DNA of 64,000 nucleotides from IMG/VR virus record IMGVR_UViG_3300042341_001047, one strand, 5' to 3'. The notes beneath the pieces are model-generated. The model ran no database searches and had not been told where the DNA came from. It saw nothing but the letters and a program-made list of their open reading frames with translations. This DNA is from a virus. Positions 697-24,677 of this stretch are shown here, piece by piece; position 1 is the first letter of the stretch; every line of letters starts with the position of its first letter. The translations under genes were made by a program, and so were the position numbers.

Positions 697-1078
697 TGGA
701 GATGACGTTGTACTGCCCAACGTGTCTTTTTCAGTTACTAATAATTACTCATTCACAGGCTTAGAAAGTTTTTCTTAACTTACAAACTATTTACTTGATT
801 TTGAAAGACTCTAACAAGTAAAAACAATAAATCTCACCTTTTTTAACCCCGTGTGAATCGGGATGGAGAATTTTTTGATAACAACTATTGTTTAGACAGT
901 TGCTAGATCTTCTACAGAGATCATGTTGTTTTGTAGAGCCGCTACTAAATCTTCACGAGTTCCTACTTCATTTGTTTTGCCATTTACGACTTTGCCATCT
1001 AATTTATAAATCGGTCATTTGACAACCCGATACCTGCATAAATACCACCACTCTGCAAATCAATTCTAAAACATCCCC
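697..1078 (-). ncRNA. ssrA: tmRNA (one-piece)
   Basis: 5' GGGGATG pairs with 3' CATCTCC-A, giving the G3:U70 Ala determinant and discriminator A. T-arm ACGTTG-GGCAGTA-CAACGT. Internal tag ORF 981..892 reads GKTNEVGTREDLVAALQNNMISVEDLATV*. Length 382 nt; CCA not encoded. Confidence 0.9.
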
Positions 1079-1104
1079 AAGTGTGTATATTTGTTACTAT
1101 TCTA

Positions 1105-1136
1105 CAAATGTATATATAATATTCTAAAATAACAAA
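1105..1136 (-). promoter_or_regulatory. Bacteroidota sigma-A type promoter for tmRNA
   Basis: TTTG(1136-1133)-N20-TACATTTG(1112-1105) matches the TTTG-N19-21-TAnnTTTG consensus. Confidence 0.75.
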
Positions 1137-1153
1137 AAGTTTAATAAATTTAA

Positions 1154-1660
1154 TTAAAAAGGTGTATTATCATCATCTAAACCATCACCATAATAAAAAT
1201 TAAAAGTCAACATTGGTCTACCATCTTTAGCATACCAAATTTCAAATTCAGAATCATATTGTGCTAAGGTATCTCTTTTAAGTTTTTTAGCAACTTCAAA
1301 TACTCTTATTACATCTCTTAATCTTTCCTTTTCATTCATAAAAGCAACAATAGAAATATCTAAATCATCATTTGTTATCTCAACTTCAACTCCAGTATTT
1401 TTGAACATTAATCTAAGAAGATATAGTAAATGACCAAACTGACCATCATCTTCTGAATCATCATCTTCATCGTCATCTTCATATGAATAGTCTTCTTCAT
1501 CATCTGTTAGTTTCTTATAACCTTTATCATCATAAAATTCATCGTCATCATCATCGTCATCACCATCTGTACTTGGATAATTAGGTCTTCCAAAAAGAGA
1601 GTCATCATCATCATCCCAACGACCTTCATTTACTATTTGTGTATACTTTTTAATTTTCAT
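1154..1660 (-). CDS. highly acidic protein with capsid-targeting-like leader
   Basis: Starts MKIKKYTQIVNE; long D/E tracts follow. Confidence 0.7.
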   Translation of the reverse strand: MKIKKYTQIVNEGRWDDDDDSLFGRPNYPSTDGDDDDDDDEFYDDKGYKKLTDDEEDYSYEDDDEDDDSEDDGQFGHLLYLLRLMFKNTGVEVEITNDDLDISIVAFMNEKERLRDVIRVFEVAKKLKRDTLAQYDSEFEIWYAKDGRPMLTFNFYYGDGLDDDNTPF

Positions 1661-3021
1661 TATTTTAGTTCTATTTTTAGGTAAGTTTCATCAAAGAAAG
1701 CAGTATCTTCTATCTTATATTTCTTTAATATAACAGATAAAGATGTTAATGAATCATAAATTTCTTCAATAGCACCATCTTCTAAATCACATTGTAAAGA
1801 AACACCACCACCATCTTCACGGACAACTTTAACATCTATAGCAAATGCTGACTTTTTAAGTTCTGATATTAAACTACCATGTTTTCTTAAAACTTCTTCA
1901 TCTAAACCAATTTTTCTAACAGTTGGAAGAGAATTCCAATCAACACCAATACTTGCCTTAGCAAGTTTTTCTAAATATGTAATATTTTGATACTCATCTG
2001 CAGTGTGTTCATGCATATATCCAACAGAAACATTAGTACATTCTGATATTTCTTCTAAAAATGATGCTGAATCGGTATAAACACCTGTTGGATCTAAAGA
2101 TAAATCCATACCTTGTTTATTATACTCTTTACAAAGAGCTGTTCCAAAATCATTCGAACAACAAACTCTACCTAATTGAGATGTTATAACTGAGTGATAG
2201 TTTCTTCTATCAAAAGAAACACATCTCTTAATATCTTTAAGATAATCAACCTCATCATAAACTGATGAAAGTAATCCAGAACCGATTCCACCTCTTTCTT
2301 CACCAATAAAGAAATAATAAAGACCTGGTACATTATGAGCCATCATATATAACATAACAGCCACACCAGCTTTATCATCAGCTCCTAATATAGAATTACC
2401 ATCGGTAATAATATATTCTTCACCTTTTTCTTCACTTGAATAAAGTTTTGTTATTTTTTGTTCTCTATCAGCAGTATCTAAGTGAGAAGTAAACATAGTT
2501 TGTGGTTTTGAATCTCCTATTATTTTATAATAGTTACCAACGATATCTTCTTCTAATTTTGGAAGAAATTGTAAAACTTCTTTTTCATAACGATTATCTG
2601 CAAAGTGAGGGTATGTTTTAGTAACTAATGAAAGGAAAGTGCTTCTTACATCTTTTGGATTGTATTTAAAATCTTCAACTTTAATTAAATTACCATCAAT
2701 TGGTTCACCAGCAGATAAAGAGTTATACATTCTAAGAAAATCATTAACATCGGAAGGACTTAATAGACTTCTAAAGTAATATTTAATAAAATTTGATATA
2801 GGCATTGGTGTCACTTTACCATCAATAGTAACATCAAATGAATTTTTCTTTTTAGAAACACTAACCGTTTCAATTCTTAATCCATTATGATATTTAGCAG
2901 ATATTTCACCTAGCCAAAGTAGCTCAAATGCTACATAATTATTTGCATCTTCCAGTTCTTTAAGAATACTTTCTAACTCTTTTGTATAAGTAACTCTTAC
3001 TGATTTTTTATCTTCTGCCAT
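1660..3021 (-). CDS. M28/M20-family zinc peptidase with N-terminal extension
   Basis: SHLDT, LGADDKAG, FFIGEERG, SFDRR and HEHT metal-binding motifs. Confidence 0.8.
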   Translation of the reverse strand: MAEDKKSVRVTYTKELESILKELEDANNYVAFELLWLGEISAKYHNGLRIETVSVSKKKNSFDVTIDGKVTPMPISNFIKYYFRSLLSPSDVNDFLRMYNSLSAGEPIDGNLIKVEDFKYNPKDVRSTFLSLVTKTYPHFADNRYEKEVLQFLPKLEEDIVGNYYKIIGDSKPQTMFTSHLDTADREQKITKLYSSEEKGEEYIITDGNSILGADDKAGVAVMLYMMAHNVPGLYYFFIGEERGGIGSGLLSSVYDEVDYLKDIKRCVSFDRRNYHSVITSQLGRVCCSNDFGTALCKEYNKQGMDLSLDPTGVYTDSASFLEEISECTNVSVGYMHEHTADEYQNITYLEKLAKASIGVDWNSLPTVRKIGLDEEVLRKHGSLISELKKSAFAIDVKVVREDGGGVSLQCDLEDGAIEEIYDSLTSLSVILKKYKIEDTAFFDETYLKIELK

Positions 3022-3057
3022 TTATAAAAATATTTTTATTATGTTATATATTAATTA

Positions 3058-3447
3058 TTAAACTTGAATTTCATAAGAATTTGTATAATCAACTTTAACT
3101 TGACCATCATTCATGTTTGGTTCTTTCTTAACAAACCTTCTTTGACAATAAACTACAGTAGCCTTACTATCTTTAGATGCTTTACTATTTTTCTTAGCCA
3201 ATTCAGCTGCTTTTTTAATAACCGAATCAATAGGAAGATTTTCTCTAACTCTAATAACAACATGAGAACCCGGAACACCTTTAACGTGCATCCAAATATC
3301 TTCTTTATCAGCTATATTAAATGTTAAGTGGTCATTAGATTTAGCATCTTTACCTACATAGACAACAAATCCGTCTATATCTAATTTTTGTATATTAGGG
3401 AATTTATCTTTTTTACCCTCGAATAGTGAAAATTGTTTTATAATCAT
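3058..3447 (-). CDS. stand-alone NFACT-R (DUF814) RNA-binding domain, as in RqcH/FbpA
   Basis: VYVGKDAKSNDHLT...DIWMHVKGVPGSHVVIR...AAELA...S...V.Y...V.K pattern. Confidence 0.85.
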   Translation of the reverse strand: MIIKQFSLFEGKKDKFPNIQKLDIDGFVVYVGKDAKSNDHLTFNIADKEDIWMHVKGVPGSHVVIRVRENLPIDSVIKKAAELAKKNSKASKDSKATVVYCQRRFVKKEPNMNDGQVKVDYTNSYEIQV

Positions 3448-3472
3448 ATACTATATATAAACTATTTAAAAC

Positions 3473-3502
3473 AAAAAAAGACCCAAGAAGGGTCTTTTTT
3501 TT
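3473..3502. terminator. intrinsic terminator after capsid gene (A/T tails on both sides)
   Basis: AAAAAAAGACCC-AAGAA-GGGTCTTTTTTTT. Confidence 0.8.
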
Positions 3503-3520
3503 AATATTTCAATCAAACTA

Positions 3521-5272
3521 TTAGTTCAATAACTGAGCAGCGTCAGTAACTGTAATAGTCATAAATTGTTTTTGTGGATACCAACCAACTTCAGTTACTG
3601 CGTATCTTGAACGTAACAACATTCTTGGTGCGAATGTAGCTTCAGAGATTACAGAAATAGACTGAGCCATTAAGTAAGGTACGAAAATGATACCTGGTTG
3701 GTCAGGGTTATTCTTACGACCTAATACGATTCTGTTATCGTTATATCTCATATATGGATCTACATAGATAGAGATGTCTCCGATTGAACCTACAGGGTAT
3801 AATTGACCTTGTCCGTTTAATTTAGATTTAACTGGGTTAATTGTGTAACCAGCGATATCTTGAAGAGCTGCAGCTAAACCTCCGTTTGTGATAAGGTATT
3901 GAGCAGGTCCTACACGACCTTCAGTCGCGATATAGTTCGAAGCGTGAGCAATCTTAGTGATTAACTTTCTTTGAACAGCGTGAGTTGTTTCACCACCAAC
4001 ATAACCTGATGTTTGATTAGCATAAGCTGTATTCAAGTCAAAGATTGTTGTTCCTGTACCAACAGCACCACTAGATAATGGAGCACTAGCCGCGTTTAAT
4101 GTACCCATTTCGAAGATTTTAGCAACGATTTGTTTAGAGATTGTTTGAGACAACTCATTAACAAGGATAGATTCCATTTTTTGAACGATATCCATACCTG
4201 TATTAGCTTTGATATCTTCAATTTCAGTTCTTCTAAGAGCTGAAGATACTTCGATAGTACCAACTGCTACAGTTTTAGAAGAGATTTTTGGTCCGATAAC
4301 ACCAGCATATGAATCATCATCTGACTGACGAGACATTGGGTAAGAACCAGCAGCACCAGTACCAGCTGTCCAGTTTGCAGAGAAACCTGGGATATGGTCT
4401 TCTAAAGCAGATACCAATTCGATAGTTTTTGTTCCAGCAACAACATTACCCGTAATAGTAGAGTAAGTACCTACTTGAGTAATTTGGTCAATCATAGATT
4501 GAGTTGGGTTAAAAGTGTTTCTTGCTTGGTCAAATGCCCAAAGTGTAGATGTTCCACTTGCTAAAGCTGTAGCAGTATGAGCTGTGTTAGCTTGTCTGTA
4601 AGCTCTGAAGATTGGGAAACCATCGATACGAGAGAAACCTAAGAACTCAGCAGTACCTCTTTTATCAGCATTTTCTTGACTAGTTACAGTAACTGTACCA
4701 GCGATAGCTGAAGAAGCATTAAGAGATATCCAAACTCTACCGTTTGCTAAACCACCTGTAGTTTCATTGATTGAATTAGTAGCTAAGAAAGCTCTAATTG
4801 ATCTTTGAATAGATGCGTTTTCTGGACAATTTAATTTGAAAACTTGTGGTCTTTCATCAGCACCATTAACTGAACGAACGTCATCATATTGAAAATCAAT
4901 ATAAAGTAAGTCGATTTTTGGACCTGGAGTTGGTTTAACAGCTACTAAATCTAAACCGATTGTTTGAGCTGCAATTTTCATTGCTACTGGTAACAAGTTT
5001 TGACCTACGTCTCCTGAACCAAGTGATCCACCGTTTCCGTTTCCAGACCAGTTACTACCTAGTAAAGAACCAGCTAATGAAGATGGTTGAGCAGCTGTAA
5101 CAGCTCCCATACCTGCAACGTTAGAAGCGTTAACATACGCATTCTCGTTGATTGAGTGATATTCAGCCATTTCTGACATCCATTCAACTCTTTCAGCAGA
5201 TACACCCATGTTTTCCAATACTGGAGTCCACTTCTTAACTGCTTTTTGTTTGTCTATTCTAATGTGTGACAT
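3521..5272 (-). CDS. gp23: major capsid protein, T4 gp23-like
   Basis: KKWTPVLE start, DLVAVKPTPGP, ILVNELSQTISKQI, IYVDPY, IFVPYL...SEATFAPRMLLRSRYA C-terminal gp23 motifs. Confidence 0.92.
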   Translation of the reverse strand: MSHIRIDKQKAVKKWTPVLENMGVSAERVEWMSEMAEYHSINENAYVNASNVAGMGAVTAAQPSSLAGSLLGSNWSGNGNGGSLGSGDVGQNLLPVAMKIAAQTIGLDLVAVKPTPGPKIDLLYIDFQYDDVRSVNGADERPQVFKLNCPENASIQRSIRAFLATNSINETTGGLANGRVWISLNASSAIAGTVTVTSQENADKRGTAEFLGFSRIDGFPIFRAYRQANTAHTATALASGTSTLWAFDQARNTFNPTQSMIDQITQVGTYSTITGNVVAGTKTIELVSALEDHIPGFSANWTAGTGAAGSYPMSRQSDDDSYAGVIGPKISSKTVAVGTIEVSSALRRTEIEDIKANTGMDIVQKMESILVNELSQTISKQIVAKIFEMGTLNAASAPLSSGAVGTGTTIFDLNTAYANQTSGYVGGETTHAVQRKLITKIAHASNYIATEGRVGPAQYLITNGGLAAALQDIAGYTINPVKSKLNGQGQLYPVGSIGDISIYVDPYMRYNDNRIVLGRKNNPDQPGIIFVPYLMAQSISVISEATFAPRMLLRSRYAVTEVGWYPQKQFMTITVTDAAQLLN

Positions 5273-5352
5273 AATTTAATTTTTATTTTTTTTTGTTATC
5301 TATATATAACCCTTGTTTTATCTACTTTTCGGAGATGTGGATTTTTTATAGA

Positions 5353-7470
5353 TTAGATGTTTTTGAATCTTTCCATAATAGCAGTAACATCATTATCAGA
5401 AAGTTTATCTTCTTGTATAAGACTTTCGTGTGATACTAACTTTTTAGTTACAGATTCATTTGTTTTAAGCTTTCTAGTTGCCCAGAAGTGCTCAACTTGA
5501 GATTCGTTCATTAAAACTTCAGCTGGGTAAAGTCTAGCTTGTGATAAGATAGATTTTTTAGCAGATTCATTCATTTGACTCCAGATAGCCTTAGTGTTTT
5601 CAGGCATTAATCTGATTACTCTTTCTTCAAGTGTTTCATTCTTTGTTGATAATGCTTCAGCAATTAGACCTAATACATCTTTGGATGTGAAATAACTTCT
5701 CTCGTTTATGTGAAGTTTAACAGATTCCTGTTCTTCGTCTGATAGTGCATAAAAGCTATCTACTTGTGACTTGTTTAAGAATTTTAAGAAATTCAAGTCT
5801 GTAGATTCAGAAACTTTACGTTTTTTAGCTTCTTCTATTAATTTATTAATTGATTCAGATAATTCAGAATCTTCATGTCCACCAACTTCATAGTTATGTG
5901 AATGAACTTCTTCTTCATTTTCTTCATTTTCATTTTCTTCTTCATTTTCCATATTGTAAGCCTCTTCTTCGTGAGCTGAAGGAACACCATTGTATTCTTC
6001 TTCATCTTCTTCAGTAGCGTTAGGTCCACAATTTTCATCTTCTTCAGCATCTTCGAAACCAGCAGCTTGTAATGAAGGGAAAGCTTCTTCTTCATTTGAT
6101 TCAAATAATTTACCACCTTTAGAATTTAATTTTTCAACGATTAATCCTTGGTAAGAAATTGATTTGTCTAAGTTTTCAGCGATATATTCTGAATAAGCGA
6201 TATTATCATCTAAATGTTCAGCGATGTACTCAGAGTAAGCGATGTTACCTTCAACGTGTTCAGCTAAATATTCTGAATAAGCGATTGAATTATCAACGTG
6301 TTCAGCGATGTACTCACCGTAAGCGATACTTTTATCTAAGTTTTCAGCGATGTACTCAGAGTAAGCGATGTTTTTGTCTAAGTTTTCAGCTAAATATTCT
6401 GAATACTCAATGTTTTTATCCAAATTCTCAGCTAAATACTCAGAATAAGAAATGTTTTTATCCAAATTCTCAGCGATATACTCAGAATAAGAAATATTTT
6501 TATCAAGATTTTCAGCTAAATATTCTGAATACTCGATATTTTTATCTAAGTTTTCAGCCAAATACTCAGAGTAGTTAACAGCCTTTTCAAGATTTTCGGC
6601 TAAATAGTCATTATGTTTAATAAGTTTATTTGTAGTCTCTTTTAAAGACTTATTCTCATTAACCATAATTTGAACTTTCTCAGCCAAATAATCCAAGTAC
6701 TTAACAACTTGAGAATTTGTGTTATTTAACTCATCGTAATACTCTAAAAGTTGTTCAAGTTTTTTAGGACTTAAGTTACCTTTAGAAATTGCACCTTTAA
6801 CTTCTTTCTTAGTAGAAGCTAATTCTTTAACTAAATATTGAGAATAGTCAGTTAACTGTTGTTTAGTAACAAATTCATTTTTGTTCATATCAAATAGTTG
6901 ATTTATTTTGGACTCATCGGACATTTCATATATCCTAAAGTTGGAGTTTTGATTATAACCCAAAGACTCGTTAAGAACCTTCACGCTCATCTTAGCCGAT
7001 GCAAATCCTGGATCAGCTACTATATCATAAGTAAATAATTTCTTTAAGGAAACAGTACCATCTGATTCAGTAATACCAGCCGCTCTTGAAGAAACAAAAA
7101 CTGGACAACCATCATCAACTAATGCTTTAGCTTCTTTACCCCAATAGGTACTAAGAAGTCTAATTTCACCACTAACAAGGTTAGATTCTTTTACATAATT
7201 TGCTTTTGTAATTATGTGAGAAGCTCTAGAAAGAGATGTATCAAAAACATCTGGGTGATCAAACTCACCATAAACAGCACCTAGACTGCTCATTCTATCA
7301 TTCATCTCATTTAAAGCAGGAAGAAATTTGTCAGCAGTATAAATTCTTTCATTACGATTTTTAACACCGAATTCCGTGAATGTACCACCAAGTATATAAT
7401 CTTTCTTACCATTGACACTTTCTCTTATAAGAGCATTTGTCGAATTTTCTACAATTAAAACTGGTTTCAT
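5353..7470 (-). CDS. gp21: prohead protease (gp21-like) fused to coiled-coil scaffold (gp22-like)
   Basis: NRNERIY, GEFDHP (His), VSSRAAG (Ser), YDIVADP (Asp) in the first ~165 aa, then ~540 aa of coiled-coil and acidic sequence; lies directly upstream of the capsid gene. Confidence 0.88.
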   Translation of the reverse strand: MKPVLIVENSTNALIRESVNGKKDYILGGTFTEFGVKNRNERIYTADKFLPALNEMNDRMSSLGAVYGEFDHPDVFDTSLSRASHIITKANYVKESNLVSGEIRLLSTYWGKEAKALVDDGCPVFVSSRAAGITESDGTVSLKKLFTYDIVADPGFASAKMSVKVLNESLGYNQNSNFRIYEMSDESKINQLFDMNKNEFVTKQQLTDYSQYLVKELASTKKEVKGAISKGNLSPKKLEQLLEYYDELNNTNSQVVKYLDYLAEKVQIMVNENKSLKETTNKLIKHNDYLAENLEKAVNYSEYLAENLDKNIEYSEYLAENLDKNISYSEYIAENLDKNISYSEYLAENLDKNIEYSEYLAENLDKNIAYSEYIAENLDKSIAYGEYIAEHVDNSIAYSEYLAEHVEGNIAYSEYIAEHLDDNIAYSEYIAENLDKSISYQGLIVEKLNSKGGKLFESNEEEAFPSLQAAGFEDAEEDENCGPNATEEDEEEYNGVPSAHEEEAYNMENEEENENEENEEEVHSHNYEVGGHEDSELSESINKLIEEAKKRKVSESTDLNFLKFLNKSQVDSFYALSDEEQESVKLHINERSYFTSKDVLGLIAEALSTKNETLEERVIRLMPENTKAIWSQMNESAKKSILSQARLYPAEVLMNESQVEHFWATRKLKTNESVTKKLVSHESLIQEDKLSDNDVTAIMERFKNI
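6154..6615 (-). repeat. 11 tandem 42-bp (14-aa) repeats, YSEY(L/I)AENLDKNIx
   Basis: Visible in both protein and DNA within the scaffold region. Confidence 0.95.
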
Positions 7471-8111: not shown

Positions 8112-9992
8112 ATGATAGAATTAAAAGAGGGAGATGTATTTGTAGGACAAATAGAATTTTCGACAAACGGAAACGCATCTCTAAAAATAGAAGAGAAAGA
8201 AGTATTCATTTATAAAAAGAATACACTTAACTCATTACACTTAGATAAAGTGAAAATTGAAATATTCAAAGCTGAGAAAAAGCTAGAAGGAAAAGTTACT
8301 GAAGTAGTTTCAAGATATAAGACAGAATTTGTTGGAAAAGTACAAATAGGTAAAAAATCAACATTTGTAATACCAGATAGTAATAGAATTCCAGTTGATT
8401 TCTATATCAAAGGTGGATTAGTAGCTGAAGATAATCAAAAGGTTATTGTTGAGTTAGTAAAGTGGACTGATAGTAAATCACCACAAGGTAAAATAGTTAA
8501 AATATTAGGAGATTCTGGTGATAACAACGCTGAGATGAACTCAATTATGTATGAATATAATCTACCTGTTGATTTCCCACAAGATGTTATAAATGAGGCT
8601 GAATTAGTACCAGAGATTATAACTGAAAAAGAAATTAAATCTCGAAGAGATATGAGAGGTATAACAACCTTAACTATTGACCCAGTTGATGCTAAAGACT
8701 TTGATGATGCTTTATCAGTTAATATAATAAGTGATAATAAAATTGAAGTAGGAGTACACATCGCAGATGTTGCTCATTATGTAAAACCTGAAACTAAATT
8801 AGATGAAGAAGCTTTCAAAAGAGCTACCTCTGTTTATTTAGTGGATAGATGTGTTCCAATGTTACCAGAAAGATTAAGTAATGGGATATGTTCTCTAAAA
8901 CCTCACGAAGATAGACTAGCATTCTCTGTTATATTCACATTAGACTATGATGGTAATATATTAGATACTTGGCAAGGAAAAACAATAATACACTCTGATA
9001 GAAGATACTCATACGAAGAAGCTCAAGAGATAATTGAAGGTGTTGATGGTGATTATAATAAAGAGATAAGAATTTTAGATTCTATTGCTAGAAAAATCAG
9101 AAAGAAAAGAATTAAAGATGGTTCTATTGAAATGGGAGGCATTGAAGTTAAATTCAAATTAGCACCAGATAACAAGAAACCAATTGGTGTTTATTTCAAA
9201 GAACAAAAAGAAGCTAATAAATTAATTGAAGAATTTATGTTATTAGCTAATAAATCTGTTGCTAAGACACTTTCAACAGCTGGATGGGCAAATGTATATA
9301 GAGTTCACGATACACCTAATATCGATAAGTTAAATGAATTGGTTGGAATTTGCAACACATTTAAATACGAATTAGATGTAGATGTAGAGTCGAATGACTT
9401 GAAGAAGTCACTTAACAATTTACTAGTTCAGATTAAAGGAACACCTGAAGAGAATATGATAGAAACATTAGTTACTAGATGTATGTCTAAGGCTACTTAT
9501 ACAATCAAGAACATAGGACACTATGGTTTAGGATTTACACACTATTCACACTTTACAAGTCCAATTAGAAGATATCCTGATTTAATCACACATAGAATTT
9601 TATTTGATTTCTTAAATAAAGGAAAACAGGGAAACCCTGGTAAAGTTGAAGACCAAGCTAAATGGTGTTCATCCCGTGAATTGATTGCTGCTAAAGCTCA
9701 AAGAGATTCTATTAAATATAAACAAGCTGAATATCTTTTAGATAAAATCGGAAAAGTATTTGATGGAATCGTATCAGGAGTAAGTGATTGGGGTATGTAT
9801 GTTGAATTAACCGAAAGTAAATGTGAAGGAATGGTTAGATATCAAACATTAGAAGGTAAATGGTCAGTTGATACAAATAACTATACTATAACTAATGAAT
9901 TAGGTGATAAAATCAGATTAGGAGATCCTGTTAAAGTTGTAGTTAAATCAGTAGACTTAGAAAGAAAACAAATAGATTTCACAATATTTTAA
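8112..9992 (+). CDS. rnr: ribonuclease R (RNB family)
   Basis: Cold-shock/OB region, TIDPVDAKDFDDALS catalytic motif, IEEFMLLAN, HYGLGF..YSHFTSPIRRYPDL, C-terminal S1 domain. Confidence 0.93.
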   Translation: MIELKEGDVFVGQIEFSTNGNASLKIEEKEVFIYKKNTLNSLHLDKVKIEIFKAEKKLEGKVTEVVSRYKTEFVGKVQIGKKSTFVIPDSNRIPVDFYIKGGLVAEDNQKVIVELVKWTDSKSPQGKIVKILGDSGDNNAEMNSIMYEYNLPVDFPQDVINEAELVPEIITEKEIKSRRDMRGITTLTIDPVDAKDFDDALSVNIISDNKIEVGVHIADVAHYVKPETKLDEEAFKRATSVYLVDRCVPMLPERLSNGICSLKPHEDRLAFSVIFTLDYDGNILDTWQGKTIIHSDRRYSYEEAQEIIEGVDGDYNKEIRILDSIARKIRKKRIKDGSIEMGGIEVKFKLAPDNKKPIGVYFKEQKEANKLIEEFMLLANKSVAKTLSTAGWANVYRVHDTPNIDKLNELVGICNTFKYELDVDVESNDLKKSLNNLLVQIKGTPEENMIETLVTRCMSKATYTIKNIGHYGLGFTHYSHFTSPIRRYPDLITHRILFDFLNKGKQGNPGKVEDQAKWCSSRELIAAKAQRDSIKYKQAEYLLDKIGKVFDGIVSGVSDWGMYVELTESKCEGMVRYQTLEGKWSVDTNNYTITNELGDKIRLGDPVKVVVKSVDLERKQIDFTIF

Positions 9993-10876: not shown

Positions 10877-12588
10877 AATTCGAATTCCCCACCACCTTCA
10901 GCAGGAGGAGTTTCTCCACCCTCAGCCGGAGCTTCTGGAGCGGCTTGAGCACCTTGAGCAGGAGCTTCACCTTCAGCAGGAGGCGTCTCACCACCTTCAG
11001 CAGGAGCTTCACCACCTTCAGCAGGAGCACCACCGGCAGCGGCGGCAGCGGCGGCGACAGACGCAGCATCTTTAGCCCAGTATCTTTGATTTTCAGCAAT
11101 TTCCTCTTGAGTAAGTTTAAATACATTGTCTATTAAGTAATCAACGTGGAAGTAAGGTTTCTCACCATTCATAATTCCAACTAATGTTCCAAATATCTCA
11201 GCTTTCTTAGCTAAGTTTCCTAATTTCTTCCACTCTTCAAATACTTGATTTGAGTTAAAAGTAATATCCATTTGATTCATGATAACTTCATCATCTTTCA
11301 ACTCAGGGAACTCAATTAACATTTGTAATTTAAGAGGTTTAACAATTAATTCTTTAAAGTTAGCTCTTAATCTATTAACAAAGTTATAAAACTTAATCTC
11401 ATCTCTTGTCATCTCAGAAGCATCTGAGAAAAGGTTACCACCACCATTTTCTTTATCGAATCTTTGGAAAGGAATTTTAGAAGCTCTTTTCAAAGCATTA
11501 TAGAACCAAGTTAACATATCAGACTCATTCAAGTTATGTCCTTCTGGTGAAACTAATTCCATAGCTGGTGTACCAGCATCTCCTTCAGGAAACCAAATTT
11601 GTTTATTATAAGGTAAGTGTTTAGCCCCATTGATACTTAAAGTACCTAATGTATCATCCCATTCTACTTCTTCAGAATAGTCATTAATTAATTGACCAAT
11701 TTGTTCTTCAGCTCTTTGTCTTGATAAACCTTTAATTGGAATAGTAAATTTTTGATAAACGGTAGCATTAATAATGTTAAACATAACTCTTGTTTGTTCA
11801 AGAATCTTTAACTGATTATATGGTTTAATTAAACCTTCAACATAAGAAGTTTCTGAATAATCATTTTGAGTAGAGTAAGAAATATAAACTATTTGAGAAT
11901 CTAAGAATATTCTTCTTAATTGAGGATCCTCTGGAAACTGAATCCATAAGTGACCTATTGTTGGTTCATAAGCTGGAACTAAAGTTTCTGGTCTTAATCT
12001 ATTAAATCCAATGATATTTTTCTTTTTATCATCATAAATAATTTCAAGTGCTAAATAACCATCAACTAAAAAGTCTTTCATCATATTCCAAGCCGTGATA
12101 CTATCACCGAATCCAAACTTATTATAAATTTTTTCAAAATACTCTTGATATTTATCTTTTACTTCTTGTGGATACTCATTAGATAATGTTTTTGGAGAAC
12201 AAAAGTCTCTATCATCATTGTAAACGATACTCTCATCAGCTATCGAACTAACAAAGTCTCTAATCTCATCTTTAATAGAATACTCTCTTAGGATTCTTCT
12301 TTTATCACCATATGCTTTATCTAAGTAAGGAATAGATTTTCTATTTAATACCGAAGCAACGGCTCTTTGAGAAAAGAAATCATACATTGAGTTACCTCTA
12401 GCAGCGTATGGATCTTCGTTGATACCAATACCTACTTGATTTCTAACAATCATATCATCATAATTCATACCATATGATGATAAACTTCTTAAAATTCTAT
12501 TAAAAAGTCCTTTGTTTTCAACTGCACTATTTGTGTAAGCGAAATTCGAATTTGATGTATCTTGATTAGATTGATTATAAGAAGCCAT
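10873..12588 (-). CDS. gp20: portal protein, T4 gp20-like
   Basis: SYVEGLIKPYNQLKILE, GLSRQRAEE, LKRASKIPFQRF, EMTRDEIKFYNFVNRLR, LIVKPLKLQML match gp20 motifs. Confidence 0.9.
   Translation of the reverse strand: MASYNQSNQDTSNSNFAYTNSAVENKGLFNRILRSLSSYGMNYDDMIVRNQVGIGINEDPYAARGNSMYDFFSQRAVASVLNRKSIPYLDKAYGDKRRILREYSIKDEIRDFVSSIADESIVYNDDRDFCSPKTLSNEYPQEVKDKYQEYFEKIYNKFGFGDSITAWNMMKDFLVDGYLALEIIYDDKKKNIIGFNRLRPETLVPAYEPTIGHLWIQFPEDPQLRRIFLDSQIVYISYSTQNDYSETSYVEGLIKPYNQLKILEQTRVMFNIINATVYQKFTIPIKGLSRQRAEEQIGQLINDYSEEVEWDDTLGTLSINGAKHLPYNKQIWFPEGDAGTPAMELVSPEGHNLNESDMLTWFYNALKRASKIPFQRFDKENGGGNLFSDASEMTRDEIKFYNFVNRLRANFKELIVKPLKLQMLIEFPELKDDEVIMNQMDITFNSNQVFEEWKKLGNLAKKAEIFGTLVGIMNGEKPYFHVDYLIDNVFKLTQEEIAENQRYWAKDAASVAAAAAAAGGAPAEGGEAPAEGGETPPAEGEAPAQGAQAAPEAPAEGGETPPAEGGGEFEF
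10885..11056 (-). repeat. GC-rich PAEGGE(A/T) repeats and poly-Ala in the portal C-terminal tail
   Basis: AAAAAAAGGAPAEGGEAPAEGGETPPAEGEAPA...PAEGGETPPAEGG. Confidence 0.85.
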
Positions 12589-12659: not shown

Positions 12660-13136
12660 TTATACATAGAAAGTTCTAAAAACAACCTTCAAATCTGTTG
12701 AAGTTAGCTTACTTTCAACGAAAAATGATTGAAAATCGTCTTGATTTTTAGAAATTGCATCTACTAATTTTTGAAATTTCATAGCTGATCTTTTCTCTAA
12801 AAATTTATTACCTTCACTCCAAGTAATATCACCTGTTTTAGGATCGATAACAGAGTCTATTCTATGTGTATTATTACCAGAGTTGAATATGGATCTAAGT
12901 AAAAAAGACTCACCTGATCTAAATAAACTCATCTCTTGGAACTTAGCCTCAGGAAAAGGTCTAACACCACCAACTAAAATACCAAAAATCATCTCGTCAA
13001 CTTCTCTTCTAGACATATTAACAGCGTGTGTTCTTAATTCTTTAGCTCTATCGATTTGCCCAAAATCTTCTAATTTATCAGCAGCACTGATATATGTTGA
13101 GTAATCCAATTCTTCAAATTTTCTGATGTGTTTCAT
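12660..13136 (-). CDS. hypothetical protein with capsid-targeting-like leader
   Basis: Starts MKHIRKFEE; TAATATATA upstream at 13161-13169. Confidence 0.7.
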   Translation of the reverse strand: MKHIRKFEELDYSTYISAADKLEDFGQIDRAKELRTHAVNMSRREVDEMIFGILVGGVRPFPEAKFQEMSLFRSGESFLLRSIFNSGNNTHRIDSVIDPKTGDITWSEGNKFLEKRSAMKFQKLVDAISKNQDDFQSFFVESKLTSTDLKVVFRTFYV

Positions 13137-15140: not shown

Positions 15141-16250
15141 ATGAGCGTAAAATTAGAATACATTTGGTTAGATGGTTCGGAACCACAACAATTAAGAAGT
15201 AAAACTAAAATTGTCGAAAAATCAGACACACTTTTGGCAAAAGATTACTCTATGTGGTCTTTCGATGGAAGTTCAACACTACAAGCAGAATCAGGAAGAG
15301 GTAAAAATACAGATTGTCTTTTAAAACCAGTGTTTATAACAAAAGATCCATTCAGAGGATATCCACACAGATTAGTATTTTGTGAAGTATTAAATCCTGA
15401 CGGAACTCCACATATAACTAATCACAGATATAAGTTAGAAGAAAAAATGAATCAGTTAGGATTACTTGAAACGATTGATAAAAACGAACAACCTTGGTTT
15501 GGTTGGGAACAAGAATACACACTAACACATAAGACAGGAAATCCTTTTGTTGAAGGTGAAGGTTTGCCATTAGGATTTACAAAAGATATTTTACACCCAG
15601 GAATAGGAACCTCATTAAATCCAAGACCACAAGGTGATTATTATTGTGGTATTGGAGCTGATACGGTTATTGGTCGTAATATAGTTGAAGAACATATGGA
15701 TATGTGTATAGAAGTAGGTTTAGATATATCAGGAATAAACGCTGAAGTATTACTTGGTCAATGGGAATATCAAATTGGTCCAGTTACATCATTAAATGGA
15801 TCGGACCAATTATGGGTTTCTAGATATTTACTACAAAGAGTTGCTGAAAAATATGATACTAATGTTTCACTTCATCCAAAACCATTAAAAGGGGACTGGA
15901 ACGGAACTGGATGTCATGTGAACTTTTCTACTAAGGAAATGAGAGAAGAAGGTGGATTGGATATAATCAAAGAAACAATGCCTAAATTAGAGAGATTTCA
16001 AAAAGAACACATTGAAATCTATGGTTTATTCAATGAAGAAAGATTAACAGGACAACACGAAACATCAAGTATTAATGATTTCAGCTATGGATTTTCTACA
16101 AGAGATACTTCTATCAGAATTCCAGCACAAGCTATAATTGAAAAGAAAGGTTACTTTGAAGATAGAAGACCAGCATCAAATTGTGACCCTTATTTAGTTT
16201 CAGAAAGAATGTTAGAAACGGTATATAGTGGTGTTGAAACAGAAGCTTAA
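15141..16250 (+). CDS. glnII: glutamine synthetase type II
   Basis: LEYIWLDG, LRSKT, WSFDGSST.QA, PWFGWEQEY, GINAEV..GQWEYQIG, GDWNGTGCH.NFST, RLTG.HETS, GYFEDRRPASNCDPY. Confidence 0.95.
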   Translation: MSVKLEYIWLDGSEPQQLRSKTKIVEKSDTLLAKDYSMWSFDGSSTLQAESGRGKNTDCLLKPVFITKDPFRGYPHRLVFCEVLNPDGTPHITNHRYKLEEKMNQLGLLETIDKNEQPWFGWEQEYTLTHKTGNPFVEGEGLPLGFTKDILHPGIGTSLNPRPQGDYYCGIGADTVIGRNIVEEHMDMCIEVGLDISGINAEVLLGQWEYQIGPVTSLNGSDQLWVSRYLLQRVAEKYDTNVSLHPKPLKGDWNGTGCHVNFSTKEMREEGGLDIIKETMPKLERFQKEHIEIYGLFNEERLTGQHETSSINDFSYGFSTRDTSIRIPAQAIIEKKGYFEDRRPASNCDPYLVSERMLETVYSGVETEA

Positions 16251-20887: not shown

Positions 20888-21415
20888 ATGAAAAAACTAG
20901 TTTATCTAAAGAAATTTAATGAAGCATCTGAAGAAGAATGTGACTTTGAAACATTTAAGGAAATAATGATGGATTTATCTGATTATTTTCAATGTGAATT
21001 TCATGATTATACCAAAAATCTTGATAATGGCTTTCTAGAAAATGATTATTTTTATGATTGTGAATTAACTATACCTCAGATAACCAATGATGATGTAGAT
21101 GAAGAAGGAACATATCTAACAGCTAGATACCTAAATGATATATTACCACCAACAGATGACCCACAAGATGTCACTGAATTCTATACAGAATTACAAGACT
21201 CTGTTGACAATCAAATTGAAAATCTTCAAAAATTAAAGAATAACTTAGATGTTATTATGAGTAATAATAACAAAATTAAAAATATATTCAAAATTTTAGA
21301 AGAAGAAATAGTTCCAAGATTTGAACACTTTTCAAACTTTGAATTATGTTCAGTTGGATTTGACGGAGATGTAATTAGAATTTCTTTTGATATGCCCGAA
21401 CCCGAAGAGGATTAA
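20888..21415 (+). CDS. acidic hypothetical protein with capsid-targeting-like leader
   Basis: Starts MKKLVYLKKFNE; TTATATATA just upstream. Confidence 0.7.
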   Translation: MKKLVYLKKFNEASEEECDFETFKEIMMDLSDYFQCEFHDYTKNLDNGFLENDYFYDCELTIPQITNDDVDEEGTYLTARYLNDILPPTDDPQDVTEFYTELQDSVDNQIENLQKLKNNLDVIMSNNNKIKNIFKILEEEIVPRFEHFSNFELCSVGFDGDVIRISFDMPEPEED

Positions 21416-22023
21416 ATAGGACAACTACTAGCAGTATAAATATACTTATAATCTCTTTTAATTTTAACCCCAAGACTTTCAGCGGTTGTAACTACATCTT
21501 CTAAACATTCAGAATCAGCACCACCAACAATTGTAACTTCTCTACCTTTTAACGATTTAAGTAGTTCATATAATTTCTTAGGAACGTGAAACCAGACATG
21601 ATTATTATTTATAAAAGTAATAATAGTTCCTTCTTTAGTATTGAAGATATCACCTTTTTTCAAAGTTTTCTCTTCTTCCATTTTACTAACTTTGTTATAA
21701 ACTTCTTTATCTAAAATCTTTTTATAAAAATCAGCATCTACATCATAGTTATATCTTTTTTCTATAAGGTCTTTCTGATTAGGGAAATGATAAAGGTCTT
21801 TATGAACTGGAATATCAGGTTTATCATCATATAAATAATCTTTATCCACATTTTTACCATCGACATGATTATCCCACAATTGATAAACATTTTGAAAGTT
21901 TTTACAATACTTTTTCAATTCATTTAAGTACATCTCAGAAAAGAACTTTTTAAATGACTTCTGAACATCAACAATAATCAATGTATCATCGTTATAACTC
22001 TCAAATGTTTTAATGAATTTCAT
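21412..22023 (-). CDS. isochorismatase/cysteine-hydrolase family protein with capsid-targeting-like leader
   Basis: LIIVDVQKSF and VTIVGGADSECLEDV (Asp and Cys catalytic motifs); starts MKFIKTFES. Confidence 0.7.
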   Translation of the reverse strand: MKFIKTFESYNDDTLIIVDVQKSFKKFFSEMYLNELKKYCKNFQNVYQLWDNHVDGKNVDKDYLYDDKPDIPVHKDLYHFPNQKDLIEKRYNYDVDADFYKKILDKEVYNKVSKMEEEKTLKKGDIFNTKEGTIITFINNNHVWFHVPKKLYELLKSLKGREVTIVGGADSECLEDVVTTAESLGVKIKRDYKYIYTASSCPI

Positions 22024-22039
22024 ATACTATATATTAAAT

Positions 22040-22069
22040 AAAAAACCCATCAATTTCTTGATGGGTTTT
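22040..22069. terminator. intrinsic terminator
   Basis: AAAAAACCCATCAA-TTTC-TTGATGGGTTTT. Confidence 0.8.
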
Positions 22070-22090
22070 AATTCTTTGAATATTTATAGA

Positions 22091-22768
22091 TTAAAGAGGT
22101 AATTCTTCTTCACCTTCTTCAGTTTCTTCTTCCTCTTCTTCCTCTTCTTCACCTTGAGCTGGTTGAGCTTGTGCTTGTCCTTGAACTGGTTGTGCTTGAC
22201 CTTGTGCTTGTGCTTGACCTTGTGCTTGACCTTGTGCTTGACCTTGTGCTTGACCTTGACCTTGACCTTGTGCTGGTTCTTCAAATTCACCTTGAGTTTG
22301 TCCTTGAGCTGGTTGAGCTTGTCCTTGAGCTGGTTGAGCTTGTGCTTGACCTTCTGGTTGAGCCTGTGGCTGAGCCTGTGGTTGAGCCTGTGGCTGAGCT
22401 TGTGGTTGAGCTTGTGGTTGAGTTTGAGCCTCACCTTCAGTTTGTACTTGTGGTTGTGCTTGACCTTGAGTTTGTCCTTGTGCTTGACCACCCATTAATG
22501 CTCCACCTGGAATTTTTTCAACATCTAAGTTGTTCATATTGATATACTTAACGATTTCTTCAGCGATGTCAACATCACCAAAAAATTGACGAAGGTTTTT
22601 ACCAGTAGTATCTTTTACTTTCTTCACATAAGCATTAATTAATGACTGAGGAATATCAATCATAGTCTTAACTTTATAAATATCGTTTACTTGAAAAACA
22701 GACTCTTTAATAATTTCTTCTCTGTTCTTTTTAATACGATAGGTTTCAAATGTTCTAATATGCTTCAT
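22091..22768 (-). CDS. protein with capsid-targeting-like leader, Q/A/P/G repeats and poly-Glu tail
   Basis: Starts MKHIRTFETY; ~90-aa globular part, then QAQP/QAQG repeats and an E-rich end. Confidence 0.8.
   Translation of the reverse strand: MKHIRTFETYRIKKNREEIIKESVFQVNDIYKVKTMIDIPQSLINAYVKKVKDTTGKNLRQFFGDVDIAEEIVKYINMNNLDVEKIPGGALMGGQAQGQTQGQAQPQVQTEGEAQTQPQAQPQAQPQAQPQAQPQAQPEGQAQAQPAQGQAQPAQGQTQGEFEEPAQGQGQGQAQGQAQGQAQGQAQAQGQAQPVQGQAQAQPAQGEEEEEEEEETEEGEEELPL
22150..22487 (-). repeat. 12-bp tandem repeats encoding QAQG/QAQP
   Basis: GACCTTGTGCTT and GAGC(C/T)TGTGG(C/T)T arrays on the + strand. Confidence 0.9.
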
Positions 22769-22826
22769 TTTATTTGAATATTTTTTATAGATTATATATT
22801 AAGTCTAAAAACTCATTTTTTATCAT

Positions 22827-23336
22827 TTAATGAATAAGTAAAGATAATACTAAGCCTATTATAGCCACTCCACCGATACCACCACCAATAATCATTTTTA
22901 CTTTTTGTTTGTGAATTTTATCTAAGTGTAATTTTATTTCTTTATCCTTATTCTCTATTTCTTTAATATATGTAAGTTCTTTATTCTTATAATCAATAAT
23001 TTGACTTTGTAGGTTTGATATTTCCTTGTCTTTAACTACTATTAAAGACTTTTGATTATTTAATTGAACCTCTTGACTAGCAATCACCATATCTTTTTCA
23101 TTAATAACTTTAATACAAGCGGAATCAACTGATCCTATTTGAACATTAAGTTTTTCAAAAAGTGGAATTAAATCTGTTTTATTATCAAGTGCTTGTGCTT
23201 GTTCAATTGTCATCACAATAACTTTTTGACCCAATGAGTCAGTCTCAAATCTCGGATATTCTATTACTTGAGCCGAAACACTCATTGTTAAAAATAAAAA
23301 AGATACACAAATAATATATTTAATTAAATTTTTCAT
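22827..23336 (-). CDS. secreted coiled-coil protein with C-terminal TM, spanin-like candidate
   Basis: Signal peptide ending SVSA|Q, coiled coil, C-terminal IIGGGIGGVAIIGLVLSLLI. Confidence 0.5.
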   Translation of the reverse strand: MKNLIKYIICVSFLFLTMSVSAQVIEYPRFETDSLGQKVIVMTIEQAQALDNKTDLIPLFEKLNVQIGSVDSACIKVINEKDMVIASQEVQLNNQKSLIVVKDKEISNLQSQIIDYKNKELTYIKEIENKDKEIKLHLDKIHKQKVKMIIGGGIGGVAIIGLVLSLLIH

Positions 23337-23749
23337 TTTATTGTTTTAATTTTTAGAGAATTAATTAAATCCTGATCAGTTCTATTAGGAGGATTATTTT
23401 TTAATTCTTGAATTTTCTTTCTTGTTTCTTCCATCTCCTTTAATAACTTATTAAGTTGTTCTTTAGAAGCATTAGCTTTAGTTTTAAATTTCTGTATTTC
23501 TAATTCTTGATCAGAAATTTTAATTTTTAATAGAGAATCTTGTTTTCTCAACTCATTAAAACTAATATTAAGAGAGTTTAAGTGTAATTGAATCGAATCT
23601 CTCTTTTCATGAAGTTCTTTGTTCTCTTGTTTTAATTTTTTTAAGTCATCTTTATAGTTATCACTTCCTCTGAAATACCACATATAGAAAAATATAAGTG
23701 AGAATCCAAGTAATACCAAAATCAGTATAGATTTAATATCCAGTTTCAT
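23333..23749 (-). CDS. N-terminal TM plus coiled coil, i-spanin (Rz)-like candidate
   Basis: One N-terminal hydrophobic helix then a long heptad region; ATGA overlap with the next gene. Confidence 0.55.
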   Translation of the reverse strand: MKLDIKSILILVLLGFSLIFFYMWYFRGSDNYKDDLKKLKQENKELHEKRDSIQLHLNSLNISFNELRKQDSLLKIKISDQELEIQKFKTKANASKEQLNKLLKEMEETRKKIQELKNNPPNRTDQDLINSLKIKTIK

Positions 23750-23861
23750 AAAAACTTTTTAATTTTAATGATATATATAAAATAATAAATGTTTCGTGAT
23801 AAATTATTATCTTTTTAATATTTTCACTATATTTGCATTCGATAAAATTTATAAATAGTAA

Positions 23862-24389
23862 ATGAAGTATAAAAGATTAATATCATTCGATTTTGATGAC
23901 ACCTTATGTCACACGCCAAAACCCGAAGAAGGTGAAAAAATTTGGAAAGAAAAAACCGGAACAGATTGGCCATACAATGGTTGGTGGGGTAGACCAGAAA
24001 GTATTGATCCAGAAATATTTTATGTACCATTAAATCAATGGGTATATGCTAAGTATTTAGAAGCAGTGGCTGATCCAGATAACTATGTTATTTTAGCAAC
24101 TGGTCGTCTTAAAAAGAAGGAAGGAATGCTTGCTAATGTTATGAGTATTCTAAATCAACACAATTTATCATTTGATGAAATCCACTTAAACTGGGGAGGT
24201 GACACATATAACTTTAAAACTAAACTATTTGAAGAAAAAATAGAAGAACTTGGTGTTAAAGAGTTTGTTATGTATGATGATAGACACGAACACTTAGTTA
24301 AATTTGAAGAATGGGCATCTGAACATCATGTTGATGTAACAATAGTAGACGTTATTAAAAAAGAAGAGACTAAATATAAAAATATATAA
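23862..24389 (+). CDS. HAD phosphatase, Swiss-Army-Knife RNA-repair-like (HAD_SAK)
   Basis: FDFDDTLCHTP, WW.RPES, LATGR, MYDDRHEH; TATATTTG element at 23828-23835. Confidence 0.75.
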   Translation: MKYKRLISFDFDDTLCHTPKPEEGEKIWKEKTGTDWPYNGWWGRPESIDPEIFYVPLNQWVYAKYLEAVADPDNYVILATGRLKKKEGMLANVMSILNQHNLSFDEIHLNWGGDTYNFKTKLFEEKIEELGVKEFVMYDDRHEHLVKFEEWASEHHVDVTIVDVIKKEETKYKNI

Positions 24390-24392
24390 TTT

Positions 24393-24677
24393 ATGGCAAC
24401 AATTACAAAGAAGAAAACAAAATCGAAAGTACAAGAAATTTTAGCAAAACCTTATAAGCTAATTCTTCACAATGATGATCACAATACATTTGATTGGGTT
24501 ATTACTTGTTTAATGAAAGTTTGTAACCACGAGTTAGAACAAGCTAATCAATGTGCTCATATAATTCACTATAGAGGAAAGTGTGATGTTAAATACGGAG
24601 ATTTAGAAACAATCTCAACAATGAAAGATAAACTAAGAGGTGCTGGTCTTTCAGCAACTATGGAGTCTAATGATTAA
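24393..24677 (+). CDS. clpS: Clp protease adaptor ClpS
   Basis: YKLILHNDDHNTFDWVI.CL...A..IH.RGKC.V, GLSA. Confidence 0.9.
   Translation: MATITKKKTKSKVQEILAKPYKLILHNDDHNTFDWVITCLMKVCNHELEQANQCAHIIHYRGKCDVKYGDLETISTMKDKLRGAGLSATMESND

Follow-up and report, generated by a model that had tools for sequence, protein, structure and literature searches.

Throughout one clade of the largest known phages there is a divergent one-piece tmRNA that is missed by ARAGORN and Rfam, and the genes found with it in related genomes support the view that this clade carries what appears to be trans-translation machinery. The window (the whole 64,000-nt stretch analyzed, from IMGVR_UViG_3300042341_001047) belongs to a Mahaphage-type megaphage of ~630 kb, an uncultured bacterial virus whose host is predicted to be a member of the Bacteroidota, and it lies on a contig of 87 kb that is 15% complete. 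A sequence-only reading of the window had named a tmRNA, an M28 peptidase, NFACT-R, RNase R and ClpS, each of which is confirmed at its position (Table 1), and had combined them into a single toolkit for ribosome rescue and proteolysis. We consider it fairly probable that in this translation-rich megaphage the genes instead make up a small core with independent accessories. That huge phages have rescue genes is, as a broad claim, already known: tmRNA and SmpB were described in them by Al-Shayeb et al. 2020 (PMC7162821), and tmRNA is known in phage G and mycobacteriophages (PMC4131195).

Table 1. Features of the window (positions on the 64,000-nt stretch; a point marks no strand)
Feature	Position	Strand	Remarks
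Intrinsic terminator 3' of tmRNA	638..669	-	
Divergent one-piece tmRNA	697..1078	-	7-bp acceptor with G3·U70 and A73; CCA unencoded
T-arm of tmRNA	705..723	-	6-bp stem, 7-nt loop GGCAGUA
Tag reading frame	892..981	-	29 codons + TAA; GKTNEVGTREDLVAALQNNMISVEDLATV
Overlapping TATATA (late-type) and TAnnTTTG (Bacteroidota -7 type) 5' of tmRNA	1105..1118	-	motif match only
Acidic protein	1154..1660	-	capsid-targeting-like leader; usually between M28 and tmRNA
Clan MH (M28/M20-like) di-zinc peptidase	1660..3021	-	extra N- and C-terminal domains; no leader
Stand-alone NFACT-R	3058..3447	-	129 aa; leader MIIKQFSLFE; PF05670 E 1.8e-16
TATATA late-type motif of NFACT-R gene	3454..3459	-	59/63 copies
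Terminator between capsid gene and NFACT-R	3473..3501	.	
Major capsid protein, gp23-like	3521..5272	-	73% identical to LR745206 and LR756502
Prohead protease-scaffold fusion	5353..7470	-	14-residue YSEYLAEN-type repeats, leader-like
RNase R-family exoribonuclease	8112..9992	+	downstream of DUF7487 gene; TIGR02063 over cut-off
ClpS	24393..24677	+	convergent with terminase gene; PF02617 E 7.3e-19
Terminase large subunit (context)	24674..26803	-	
Small protein	43007..43381	-	capsid-targeting-like leader; degenerate UVR-like C-terminus (weak)

The divergent tmRNA and its protein partners

The tmRNA is real: acceptor stem, T-arm, pseudoknot stems, tag frame and terminator are all in place between G1 (1078) and A73 (697) or next to them, and among related copies with 66–86% identity to that of the window, compensatory changes occur in 17 of the 30 named pairs, a level reached by 0 of 500 shuffles. 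G3, U70 and A73 are kept in all 59 complete copies, two-sided changes are present in the acceptor stem and in five of six T-stem pairs, the extra A-U pair being invariant, and helix 2 covaries. The first pseudoknot is 100% paired in stem a and 79% in stem b, and a second one is 95–96% paired. The T-stem has 6 bp in 43/45 copies, with a loop that is mainly GGCAGUR, in place of the canonical 5-bp stem and UUCRANY loop; a relative in locus L264 has a 5-bp T-stem. The loop resembles, we presume, that of the alphaproteobacterial two-piece tmRNA. The window copy gives no match with ARAGORN or with the Rfam model RF00023. That model covers the whole of one homologue with a score below cut-off (32.8 bits, E 1.6e-12) and reaches 65.2 bits with the tmRNA of LR756504. 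A search for the T-arm pattern in 185,579 prokaryote genomes matched a single 3.6-kb contig, and ARAGORN, which misses this type, was the program used in the 2020 huge-phage survey (PMC7162821).

The tag frame is open in all 45 distinct copies, in each of which the remaining two frames stop within 26 codons, and indels within it preserve the frame. The commonest tmRNA tag length is 10 residues (PMC11915505), so that the phage tag is about three times as long. As the sequence-only reading had stated, smpB is missing from the window, nor is it found in the 87-kb contig; the search beyond the window that it had suggested located the gene, with the tail motif of its product intact, in 6/6 complete or near-complete relatives, and in relatives it lies ~130 kb from the tmRNA. 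Without this tmRNA the SmpB of LR745206 and LR756502, both published complete genomes, would seem orphaned. LR745206 also has a gene of the CCA-adding/poly(A)-polymerase family, and the closest relatives encode ClpP (two to three copies) and a ClpC-like Clp ATPase. Lon was looked for and none was found.

From this anatomy and these partners we infer a function in trans-translation. We regard as unlikely the alternative of a tmRNA that sabotages or hijacks the host by titrating its SmpB, or that frees ribosomes but adds a stabilizing or sorting tag by which truncated or phage products evade ClpXP. The absence of an Ala-Ala end from all 45 tags, the length of the tag and the atypical T-arm would suit such a role, for which the TLD-only RNA of phage DS6A, an inhibitor of host tmRNA (PMC4131195), offers a precedent. 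However, a titrator would have no need of a phage SmpB with an intact tail, the complete pseudoknot and tag anatomy is kept, and the last residue of the tags is a hydrophobic one, V or A; in the related LR756504 the tag has an Ala-Ala end. The 13-bp acceptor/T branch could still hamper use by EF-Tu or the ribosome.

Co-occurrence, RNase R and ClpS

The sequence-only reading placed tmRNA, NFACT-R, RNase R, ClpS and the peptidase in one coordinated toolkit, possibly a counter to ribonuclease toxins of the host or to abortive infection, and as a whole we judge this improbable. Parts for trans-translation are present in the clade (tmRNA and SmpB, and in the closest relatives ClpP and a Clp ATPase), but the roles given to the RqcH route, RNase R and ClpS are not supported. 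Co-presence is frequent: RNase R, NFACT-R, M28, the acidic gene and tmRNA occur together in 30 of the 48 fully spanned loci, ClpS is in 74/74 terminase loci, and the two closest complete genomes hold the full set and, in addition, SmpB, ClpP, a Clp ATPase and a mini release factor with GGQ. Joint absence of ClpS, ClpP, RNase R and NFACT-R in LR756501 also favors a toolkit, as does the RNA-repair pressure suggested by the leader-bearing RNA ligase, CCA-type nucleotidyltransferase and 2H enzymes. However, the loci were selected by capsid or terminase similarity and co-occurrence thus reflects shared ancestry, being high mostly because of synteny in a conserved head region, and losses of RNase R and NFACT-R, as judged from both the locus counts and the tree, never coincide (Fisher p=0.34). 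Promoter classes differ as well, with the late motif upstream of tmRNA in 43/44 copies, NFACT-R in 59/63 and M28 in 62/68 but of RNase R in only 3/66, against a TATATA background inside genes of 5.6%; the TAnnTTTG motif precedes 27/44 tmRNA copies. The tightest unit, by promoter motif and gene order, is NFACT-R, M28 and tmRNA, which share late-type promoters and moved together once, in a 629-kb phage where, at a distance from the capsid gene, NFACT-R is fused to M28 and lies with a tmRNA. Only this one phage has the fusion, and tmRNA relocates alone in loci L009, L028, L030 and L035.

RNase R had been cast as the partner that degrades non-stop mRNA, a role that its structure and history do not support. 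The enzyme has the CSD-RNB-S1 core with its catalytic motif intact (the strict pattern in 42/49 copies), yet it lacks the N-terminal HTH, and all 49 copies end at the S1 domain without the K-rich tail that E. coli RNase R needs for non-stop mRNA decay (PMC3949413); by that E. coli rule, and with its rare late motif and independent loss from its slot, it would not be the partner of the tmRNA. The domain layout, with HTH and tail absent, resembles RNase II, and in LR756502 the gene is ~150 kb from the head genes.

ClpS, in turn, had been placed downstream of tagging, but it is N-termini that ClpS recognizes, and the tmRNA adds its tag at the C-terminus. The N-D-D...H N-degron pocket is intact in the terminase-linked ClpS copies, but the Clp ATPase of the closest relatives is without Clp_N, the ClpS-docking N-domain, which is found only in LR756501, a genome with no ClpS. 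The partner of ClpS must therefore be a host enzyme, or else ClpS would be a competitor. The protein read as carrying a UVR motif has no PF02151 or other Pfam match, and what remains of that claim is its weak C-terminal likeness and an Atlas neighbor (0.85) in which 39% of members are UVR.

Stand-alone NFACT-R, the M28 peptidase and leader peptides

The nearest full-length relatives of the phage NFACT-R are RqcH proteins of Rhodothermaceae and Cytophagales, and by sequence it would be a C-terminal domain cut out of an RqcH of the Bacteroidota type. An origin in the eukaryotic solo clade is not supported, bacterial RqcH being closer. NFACT-N is the domain that reads tRNA-Ala. It (PF05833) is absent from all 13 records searched, so that the phage protein would be unable to Ala-tail, and six genomes yielded no S4 protein of RqcP size, four of them being free of any S4 match and the other two giving one 265-codon frame and one sub-cut-off match; a Pth gene was also looked for and none found. 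The claim that the phage touches the Ala-tailing route of RqcH is thus not supported.

His54 of NFACT-R is the equivalent of Jlp2 H44 and CCDC25 H41, aligning with the histidine of the CCDC25 DIWFH motif, and in yeast Jlp2 the histidine is essential for peptide release (10.1101/2025.09.04.673968). It is invariant in 32/32 aligned NFACT-R sequences, and the W-x-H motif is present in 119 of 120 near homologues. Our preferred reading, held tentatively and by analogy, is that NFACT-R is catalytic in the manner of Jlp2. Somewhat short of an even chance is that it is injected as a non-catalytic binder or decoy, which would bind tRNA ends, tmRNA or the 50S A-site finger, act as a competitor of host RqcH or sequester a host defense sensor. 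NFACT-R is a predicted RNA-binding domain (PMC4075521) and in RqcH is near the A-site finger (PMC8012679); the histidine is likewise in 78/78 full-length RqcH relatives, so that His54 may be mere inheritance; and one syntenic branch (L032, L044, L053, L059) has lost both histidines and is maintained with its leader. Against a mere binder, the cavity residues N38, D50, W52, H54 and H62 are invariant over hundreds of phage copies while other positions diverged, and Jlp2, the sole solo NFACT-R tested so far, is catalytic.

The neighboring peptidase gives no Pfam match, M28 matches being found instead in paralogue and fusion forms, but its fold confirms clan MH, matching PepT/TET with likeness to both M28 and M20, and its di-zinc ligands (H180, D182, D215, E241, E242, D271, H339) are invariant. 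LR745206 has five M28 paralogues. The NFACT-R leader, disordered in the structure model, is present in 108/120 homologues, and the leader pattern, derived from the window's contig and then applied to LR745206, is found in 136/886 of its ORFs (~15%) versus 30/2959 internal Met. The leader resembles the T4 capsid targeting sequence.

Proposed mechanism and its significance

We propose that the tmRNA functions in trans-translation, alanylated via G3·U70, given its CCA by an added step and paired with phage SmpB, and that it would free ribosomes stalled on broken mRNA while adding a long tag without an Ala-Ala end. Products with this tag would probably go not to ClpXP, the usual route, but to another protease, for which phage ClpP and the N-domain-less ClpC are possible candidates, or would be slower to degrade. 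NFACT-R and M28, the neighbors that form the tightest unit with tmRNA, would be expressed late, as judged from a motif match only. The leader most likely loads NFACT-R into the head for injection, after which NFACT-R would release peptide from peptidyl-tRNA via His54, freeing tRNA and 50S subunits. M28 may trim short peptides, although, having no leader, it is probably not co-injected. RNase R would act as a general structured-RNA exonuclease with its own schedule of expression and loss, and ClpS, likewise on its own schedule, as an adaptor for host ClpA/ClpC. The full chain, in which megaphages pack and inject a stand-alone NFACT-R peptidyl-tRNA release enzyme, with a peptidase and a tmRNA that supplies a phage protease by way of its long tag, is doubtful when taken together.

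If NFACT-R does release peptides, it would be the first factor of the Jlp2 type from outside the eukaryotes, and the NFACT-R domain of bacterial RqcH, with the same histidine, may itself end Ala-tailing. The Jlp2 paper asks if other histidine-bearing NFACT-R domains release peptides (10.1101/2025.09.04.673968), and a 2021 review lists the termination of bacterial Ala-tailing as unanswered (PMC8012679); with a natural 116-residue solo domain and a histidine-less branch as control, both questions are directly testable. The 7/6 arm and long tag, for their part, probe the limits of EF-Tu, SmpB and Clp proteases.

Comparison with known systems

The phage tmRNA has in common with the standard one-piece tmRNA (SsrA, RF00023) the alanine acceptor with G3·U70 and A73, a long helix 2, pseudoknots, the resume context, an internal tag frame, a length of ~380 nt and an SmpB within the same genomes, and differs in its 13-bp acceptor/T branch (6-bp T-stem), GGCRGUR-type loop, mostly unencoded CCA and 27–30-residue tag that never ends in Ala-Ala. 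Compared with B. subtilis RqcH of the NFACT family RqcH/NEMF (7AQC/7AS8), NFACT-R has 38% identity, an rmsd of 1.4–1.5 Å and the W-x-H...H in common, but is without NFACT-N, HhH, coiled-coil, M domain and RqcP, and has an added leader. With Jlp2/CCDC25 it shares the stand-alone fold (TM 0.72–0.75 by query) and the conserved N and H beside the essential histidine, and differs in its bacterial RqcH origin, lack of the C-terminal coiled coil and K, not D, at H+2. RNase R keeps the CSD-RNB-S1 core and catalytic aspartates of the E. coli enzyme without the HTH and K-rich tail, and ClpS has a pocket like that of the ClpAP/ClpCP adaptor, but the phage relatives' own Clp ATPase is without Clp_N. In T4, the capsid targeting sequence that gp21 cleaves from IPII/IPIII (PMC9958956) is similarly an N-terminal peptide of ~10 residues with aromatics and a Glu end, and a T4-type prohead protease is present here too; the phage leader, by contrast, marks ~15% of all ORFs where T4 has a handful, and its packaging is putative.

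Genome setting and a hidden tmRNA

Two items stand out in this region, a hidden, divergent tmRNA and a solitary NFACT-R protein that carries both a leader peptide and the histidine of yeast Jlp2. The window derives from a viral contig of 86.8 kb (15% complete) with T4-like head and tail genes, namely those for capsid, prohead protease, portal, terminase and sheath. Its capsid protein shares 73% identity with the capsid proteins of LR745206 (634,780 bp) and LR756502 (642,428 bp), whose sizes agree with the genomes of 634 and 642 kb that have been placed in the Mahaphage clade, with Bacteroidetes predicted as hosts (Al-Shayeb et al., PMC7162821). The occurrence of tmRNA and SmpB in huge phages is already known, with ARAGORN used for detection (PMC7162821).

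Neither ARAGORN (default and relaxed thresholds) nor Rfam (gathering and E-value thresholds) reports the tmRNA of the window, and ARAGORN calls one in none of 80 related loci. These blanks are not taken as absence because base pairs covary, and the lack of a tmRNA that such silence would imply was rejected on that ground. Two-sided changes occur in 17 of 30 named pairs (acceptor stem, T-stem and two pseudoknots), five of them pairs of the T-stem on its own, and helix 2 likewise covaries. Across the 30 pairs 94.9% of cells are paired, a value reached by no shuffle, in a test inflated by the relatedness of the copies, and sliding the register lowers it to 33-50%. The element is present in 47/48 loci spanning the region, at 66-86% identity among relatives, and G3, U70 and A73 are kept in all 59 complete copies, the G3·U70 count being made on BLAST-retrieved copies independent of the structure search pattern. 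One homologue aligns to RF00023 over its full length (E 1.6e-12, its score short of the cut-off), and the single-sequence fold is uninformative (z -1.18). On this comparative evidence, the tmRNA is genuine; the other genes named in the sequence-only reading were confirmed with it. In LR745206, ARAGORN finds 59 tRNA genes and misses the tmRNA.

Features of the window, its contig and related loci (LR and L identifiers denote related genomes and loci)
Feature	Sequence	Position (strand)	Remark
tmRNA	window	697-1078 (-)	
Acidic gene	window	1154-1660 (-)	leader
M28-type peptidase	window	1660-3021 (-)	
NFACT-R	window	3058-3447 (-)	leader; beside capsid gene
RNase R	window	8112-9992 (+)	
Glutamine synthetase II-like	window	15141-16250	amid head genes
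HAD, Swiss Army Knife RNA-repair family	window	23862-24389	directly upstream of clpS
ClpS	window	24393-24677 (+)	
UVR-labelled gene	window	43007-43381 (-)	leader
APS-kinase-like, DUF2061, sulfotransferase	window	56418-58413	grouped
Leader-bearing ORF regions	window	12660-13136, 21412-22768, 32887-33453, 41393-43381, 56073-56396	
Leader-bearing ORF regions	LR745206		L129-L160
Second M28-like peptidase	G000 C1 (contig of window)	2486-3571	upstream of window
DTG-motif protein	G000 C1	4130-4546	upstream of window; RimB-type protease look (by eye)
tmRNA	LR745206	204891-205273	
ClpC-like ATPase, no N-domain	LR745206	423224-425329	L123, L124
RF-1-family protein	four complete genomes		L103-L106
NFACT-R-M28 fusion	L264 (629-kb phage)	5001-6500	
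tmRNA	L264	7727-8104	5-bp T-stem
NFACT-R, ~230 residues	L024, L031 and similar	11752-12456, 11746-12432	
NFACT-R, histidine-less	L032, L044, L053, L059	11780-12256, 14064-14561, 9249-9725, 13400-13918	no Pfam match

Partners of the tmRNA and the limits of a toolkit

The sequence-only reading joined tmRNA, NFACT-R, RNase R, ClpS and peptidase into one phage toolkit for rescue and proteolysis. It noted no smpB in the window, and none lies on the whole 86.8-kb, 15%-complete contig; a search among relatives located SmpB, with its tail motif intact, in each of the four complete genomes and in two closer relatives that are nearly complete; in the two closest of the complete genomes, the gene and the tmRNA are about 130 kb apart. 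Lon was ruled out as reader of the tag, no Lon gene being found. The search for arfB returned an RF-1-family protein of 134-142 residues in 4/4 complete genomes, with GGQ and without a codon-reading domain; because the ArfB-type basic tail is missing by inspection, the ArfB identity was dropped, and the protein is a candidate codon-independent release factor.

RNase R has an intact catalytic motif; all 49 copies start past the HTH and end with the S1 domain. It occupies its slot at 65/79 loci, its losses from the slot are scattered over the capsid tree with none coinciding with loss of NFACT-R, and in LR756502 some 150 kb separate it from the head genes. Genes for capsid (72/79), prohead (80/80), NFACT-R (59/63), M28 (62/68) and tmRNA (43/44) have a TATATA motif upstream; for RNase R the count is 3/66, against a background of 5.6%. 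In E. coli, RNase R depends on a K-rich tail for non-stop mRNA decay (PMC3949413). The absence of that tail here, the motif count and the independent losses do not bear out RNase R as a coupled part.

ClpS adjoins terminase in 74/74 loci, its pocket intact. ClpP is found in the closest relatives, as is a ClpC-like ATPase that has a UVR segment and no Clp_N domain. Since ClpS docks on Clp_N, it probably acts on a host ATPase, and its proposed link to phage proteolysis lacks the usual coupling part. The UVR-labelled gene exists, its UVR call being a weak lead; each genome has three or four proteins with UVR motifs, which may be adaptors. A Bacteroidota-type promoter motif (motif match) precedes the HAD gene.

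The toolkit interpretation is thus partly supported: tmRNA-SmpB and Clp parts are present in the clade, the RqcH link fails, and the parts that usually couple RNase R and ClpS are missing. Co-occurrence across relatives is high, but largely synteny.

A solitary NFACT-R protein

Ala-tailing requires RqcP and NFACT-N, which reads the tRNA-Ala anticodon (PMC8012679). NFACT-N was found in 0/13 records and the search for rqcP gave no RqcP-sized S4 protein in the relatives' genomes, so the suggested contact with RqcH Ala-tailing was rejected; by its domain content, the phage protein is not RqcH. Its 129 residues are predicted to fold as NFACT-R (pLDDT 89), and the model lies 1.4-1.5 Å from RqcH and 1.9-2.9 Å from CCDC25. 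Among full-length proteins, its closest relatives are the RqcH proteins of Rhodothermaceae and Cytophagales.

The only solo NFACT-R that has been tested, yeast Jlp2, releases peptide from peptidyl-tRNA via H44, equivalent to H41 of CCDC25 (10.1101/2025.09.04.673968). The phage DIWMH motif aligns with DIWFH of CCDC25, and His54 is therefore the residue equivalent to Jlp2 H44; no change at this position occurs among 32 aligned copies. Histidine-dependent peptide release by the phage protein is accordingly conceivable, and we put it forward tentatively, because RqcH shares the histidine (78/78 full-length relatives) and one branch with syntenic NFACT-R has lost both histidines. That branch is a natural negative control. 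The protein may instead be a binder or decoy, a reading to which we give somewhat less than even credence, slightly more than to release. NFACT-R did not alternate with Pth or Pth2 across genomes; Pth is absent in all genomes searched, and weak Pth2-like matches occur in 4/5. The variants of about 230 residues have an additional acidic N-terminal domain and retain a leader-like motif internally, at the domain junction.

NFACT-R lies directly upstream of the M28-type peptidase in 64/72 loci (68/72 counting the divergent branch). The peptidase has invariant di-zinc ligands and a PepT/TET-like fold, and LR745206 has five paralogues. In one 629-kb phage NFACT-R and M28 are fused and followed by a tmRNA, and the 5 kb around them contain no capsid gene; this single event gives the strongest hint that the two are functionally linked. 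Complex prediction of the two proteins gave no answer (score 0.00).

Leader peptides

Residues 1-13 of NFACT-R are predicted to be disordered and hold a leader of variable sequence with a constant pattern, basic, aromatic, then Glu, which we take to be akin to the T4 capsid targeting sequence. The latter is a peptide of about 10 residues removed by gp21 (PMC9958956). The leader also resembles a repeat of the phage's own scaffold. The pattern occurs at 13/82 ORF starts vs 2/482 internal methionines on this contig and at 136/886 (~15%) vs 30/2959 in LR745206. M28, RNase R and ClpS have none; in LR745206 its bearers include an RNA ligase, a CCA/poly(A)-type nucleotidyltransferase, a 2H/Acb1-like phosphoesterase and DHH proteins. 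We infer that leader-bearing proteins are packaged in the capsid, and the ~15% share would, on sequence grounds, imply a very large packaged protein set. A literature search, incomplete in coverage, found no description of megaphage leaders.

Divergence of the tmRNA and its tag

Of 45 distinct copies, 43 have a T-stem of 6 pairs and three encode CCA; the T-loop is mostly GGCAGUR. The extra A-U pair of the T-stem never varies, and its pairing is therefore unproven by covariation. The T-arm pattern had one match in 185,579 prokaryote genomes, a 3.6-kb contig of a Peribacteria MAG (L128) that bears the same phage tmRNA type at 73% identity and is probably misbinned phage DNA. The tmRNA of the 629-kb phage, to which ARAGORN is also blind, has the same long tag type. 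Long tags occur as well in the more distant Mahaphages LR756504 (L107), whose tmRNA is above the Rfam cut-off and has a tag ending in Ala-Ala, and LR756501 (L111), whose candidate scores 21 bits with its ends unconfirmed. No account of this tmRNA type was found in the literature, in a search of incomplete coverage.

All 45 copies keep an open tag frame, and the two other frames meet a stop within 26 codons; codon conservation in the tag arises partly because an RNA helix lies within the frame. The tags of these 45 copies share a conserved EDLV core, and their last residue is V or A, with none closing in Ala-Ala. They are 27-30 residues long, in contrast to bacterial tmRNA tags, for which 10 residues is the commonest length (PMC11915505).
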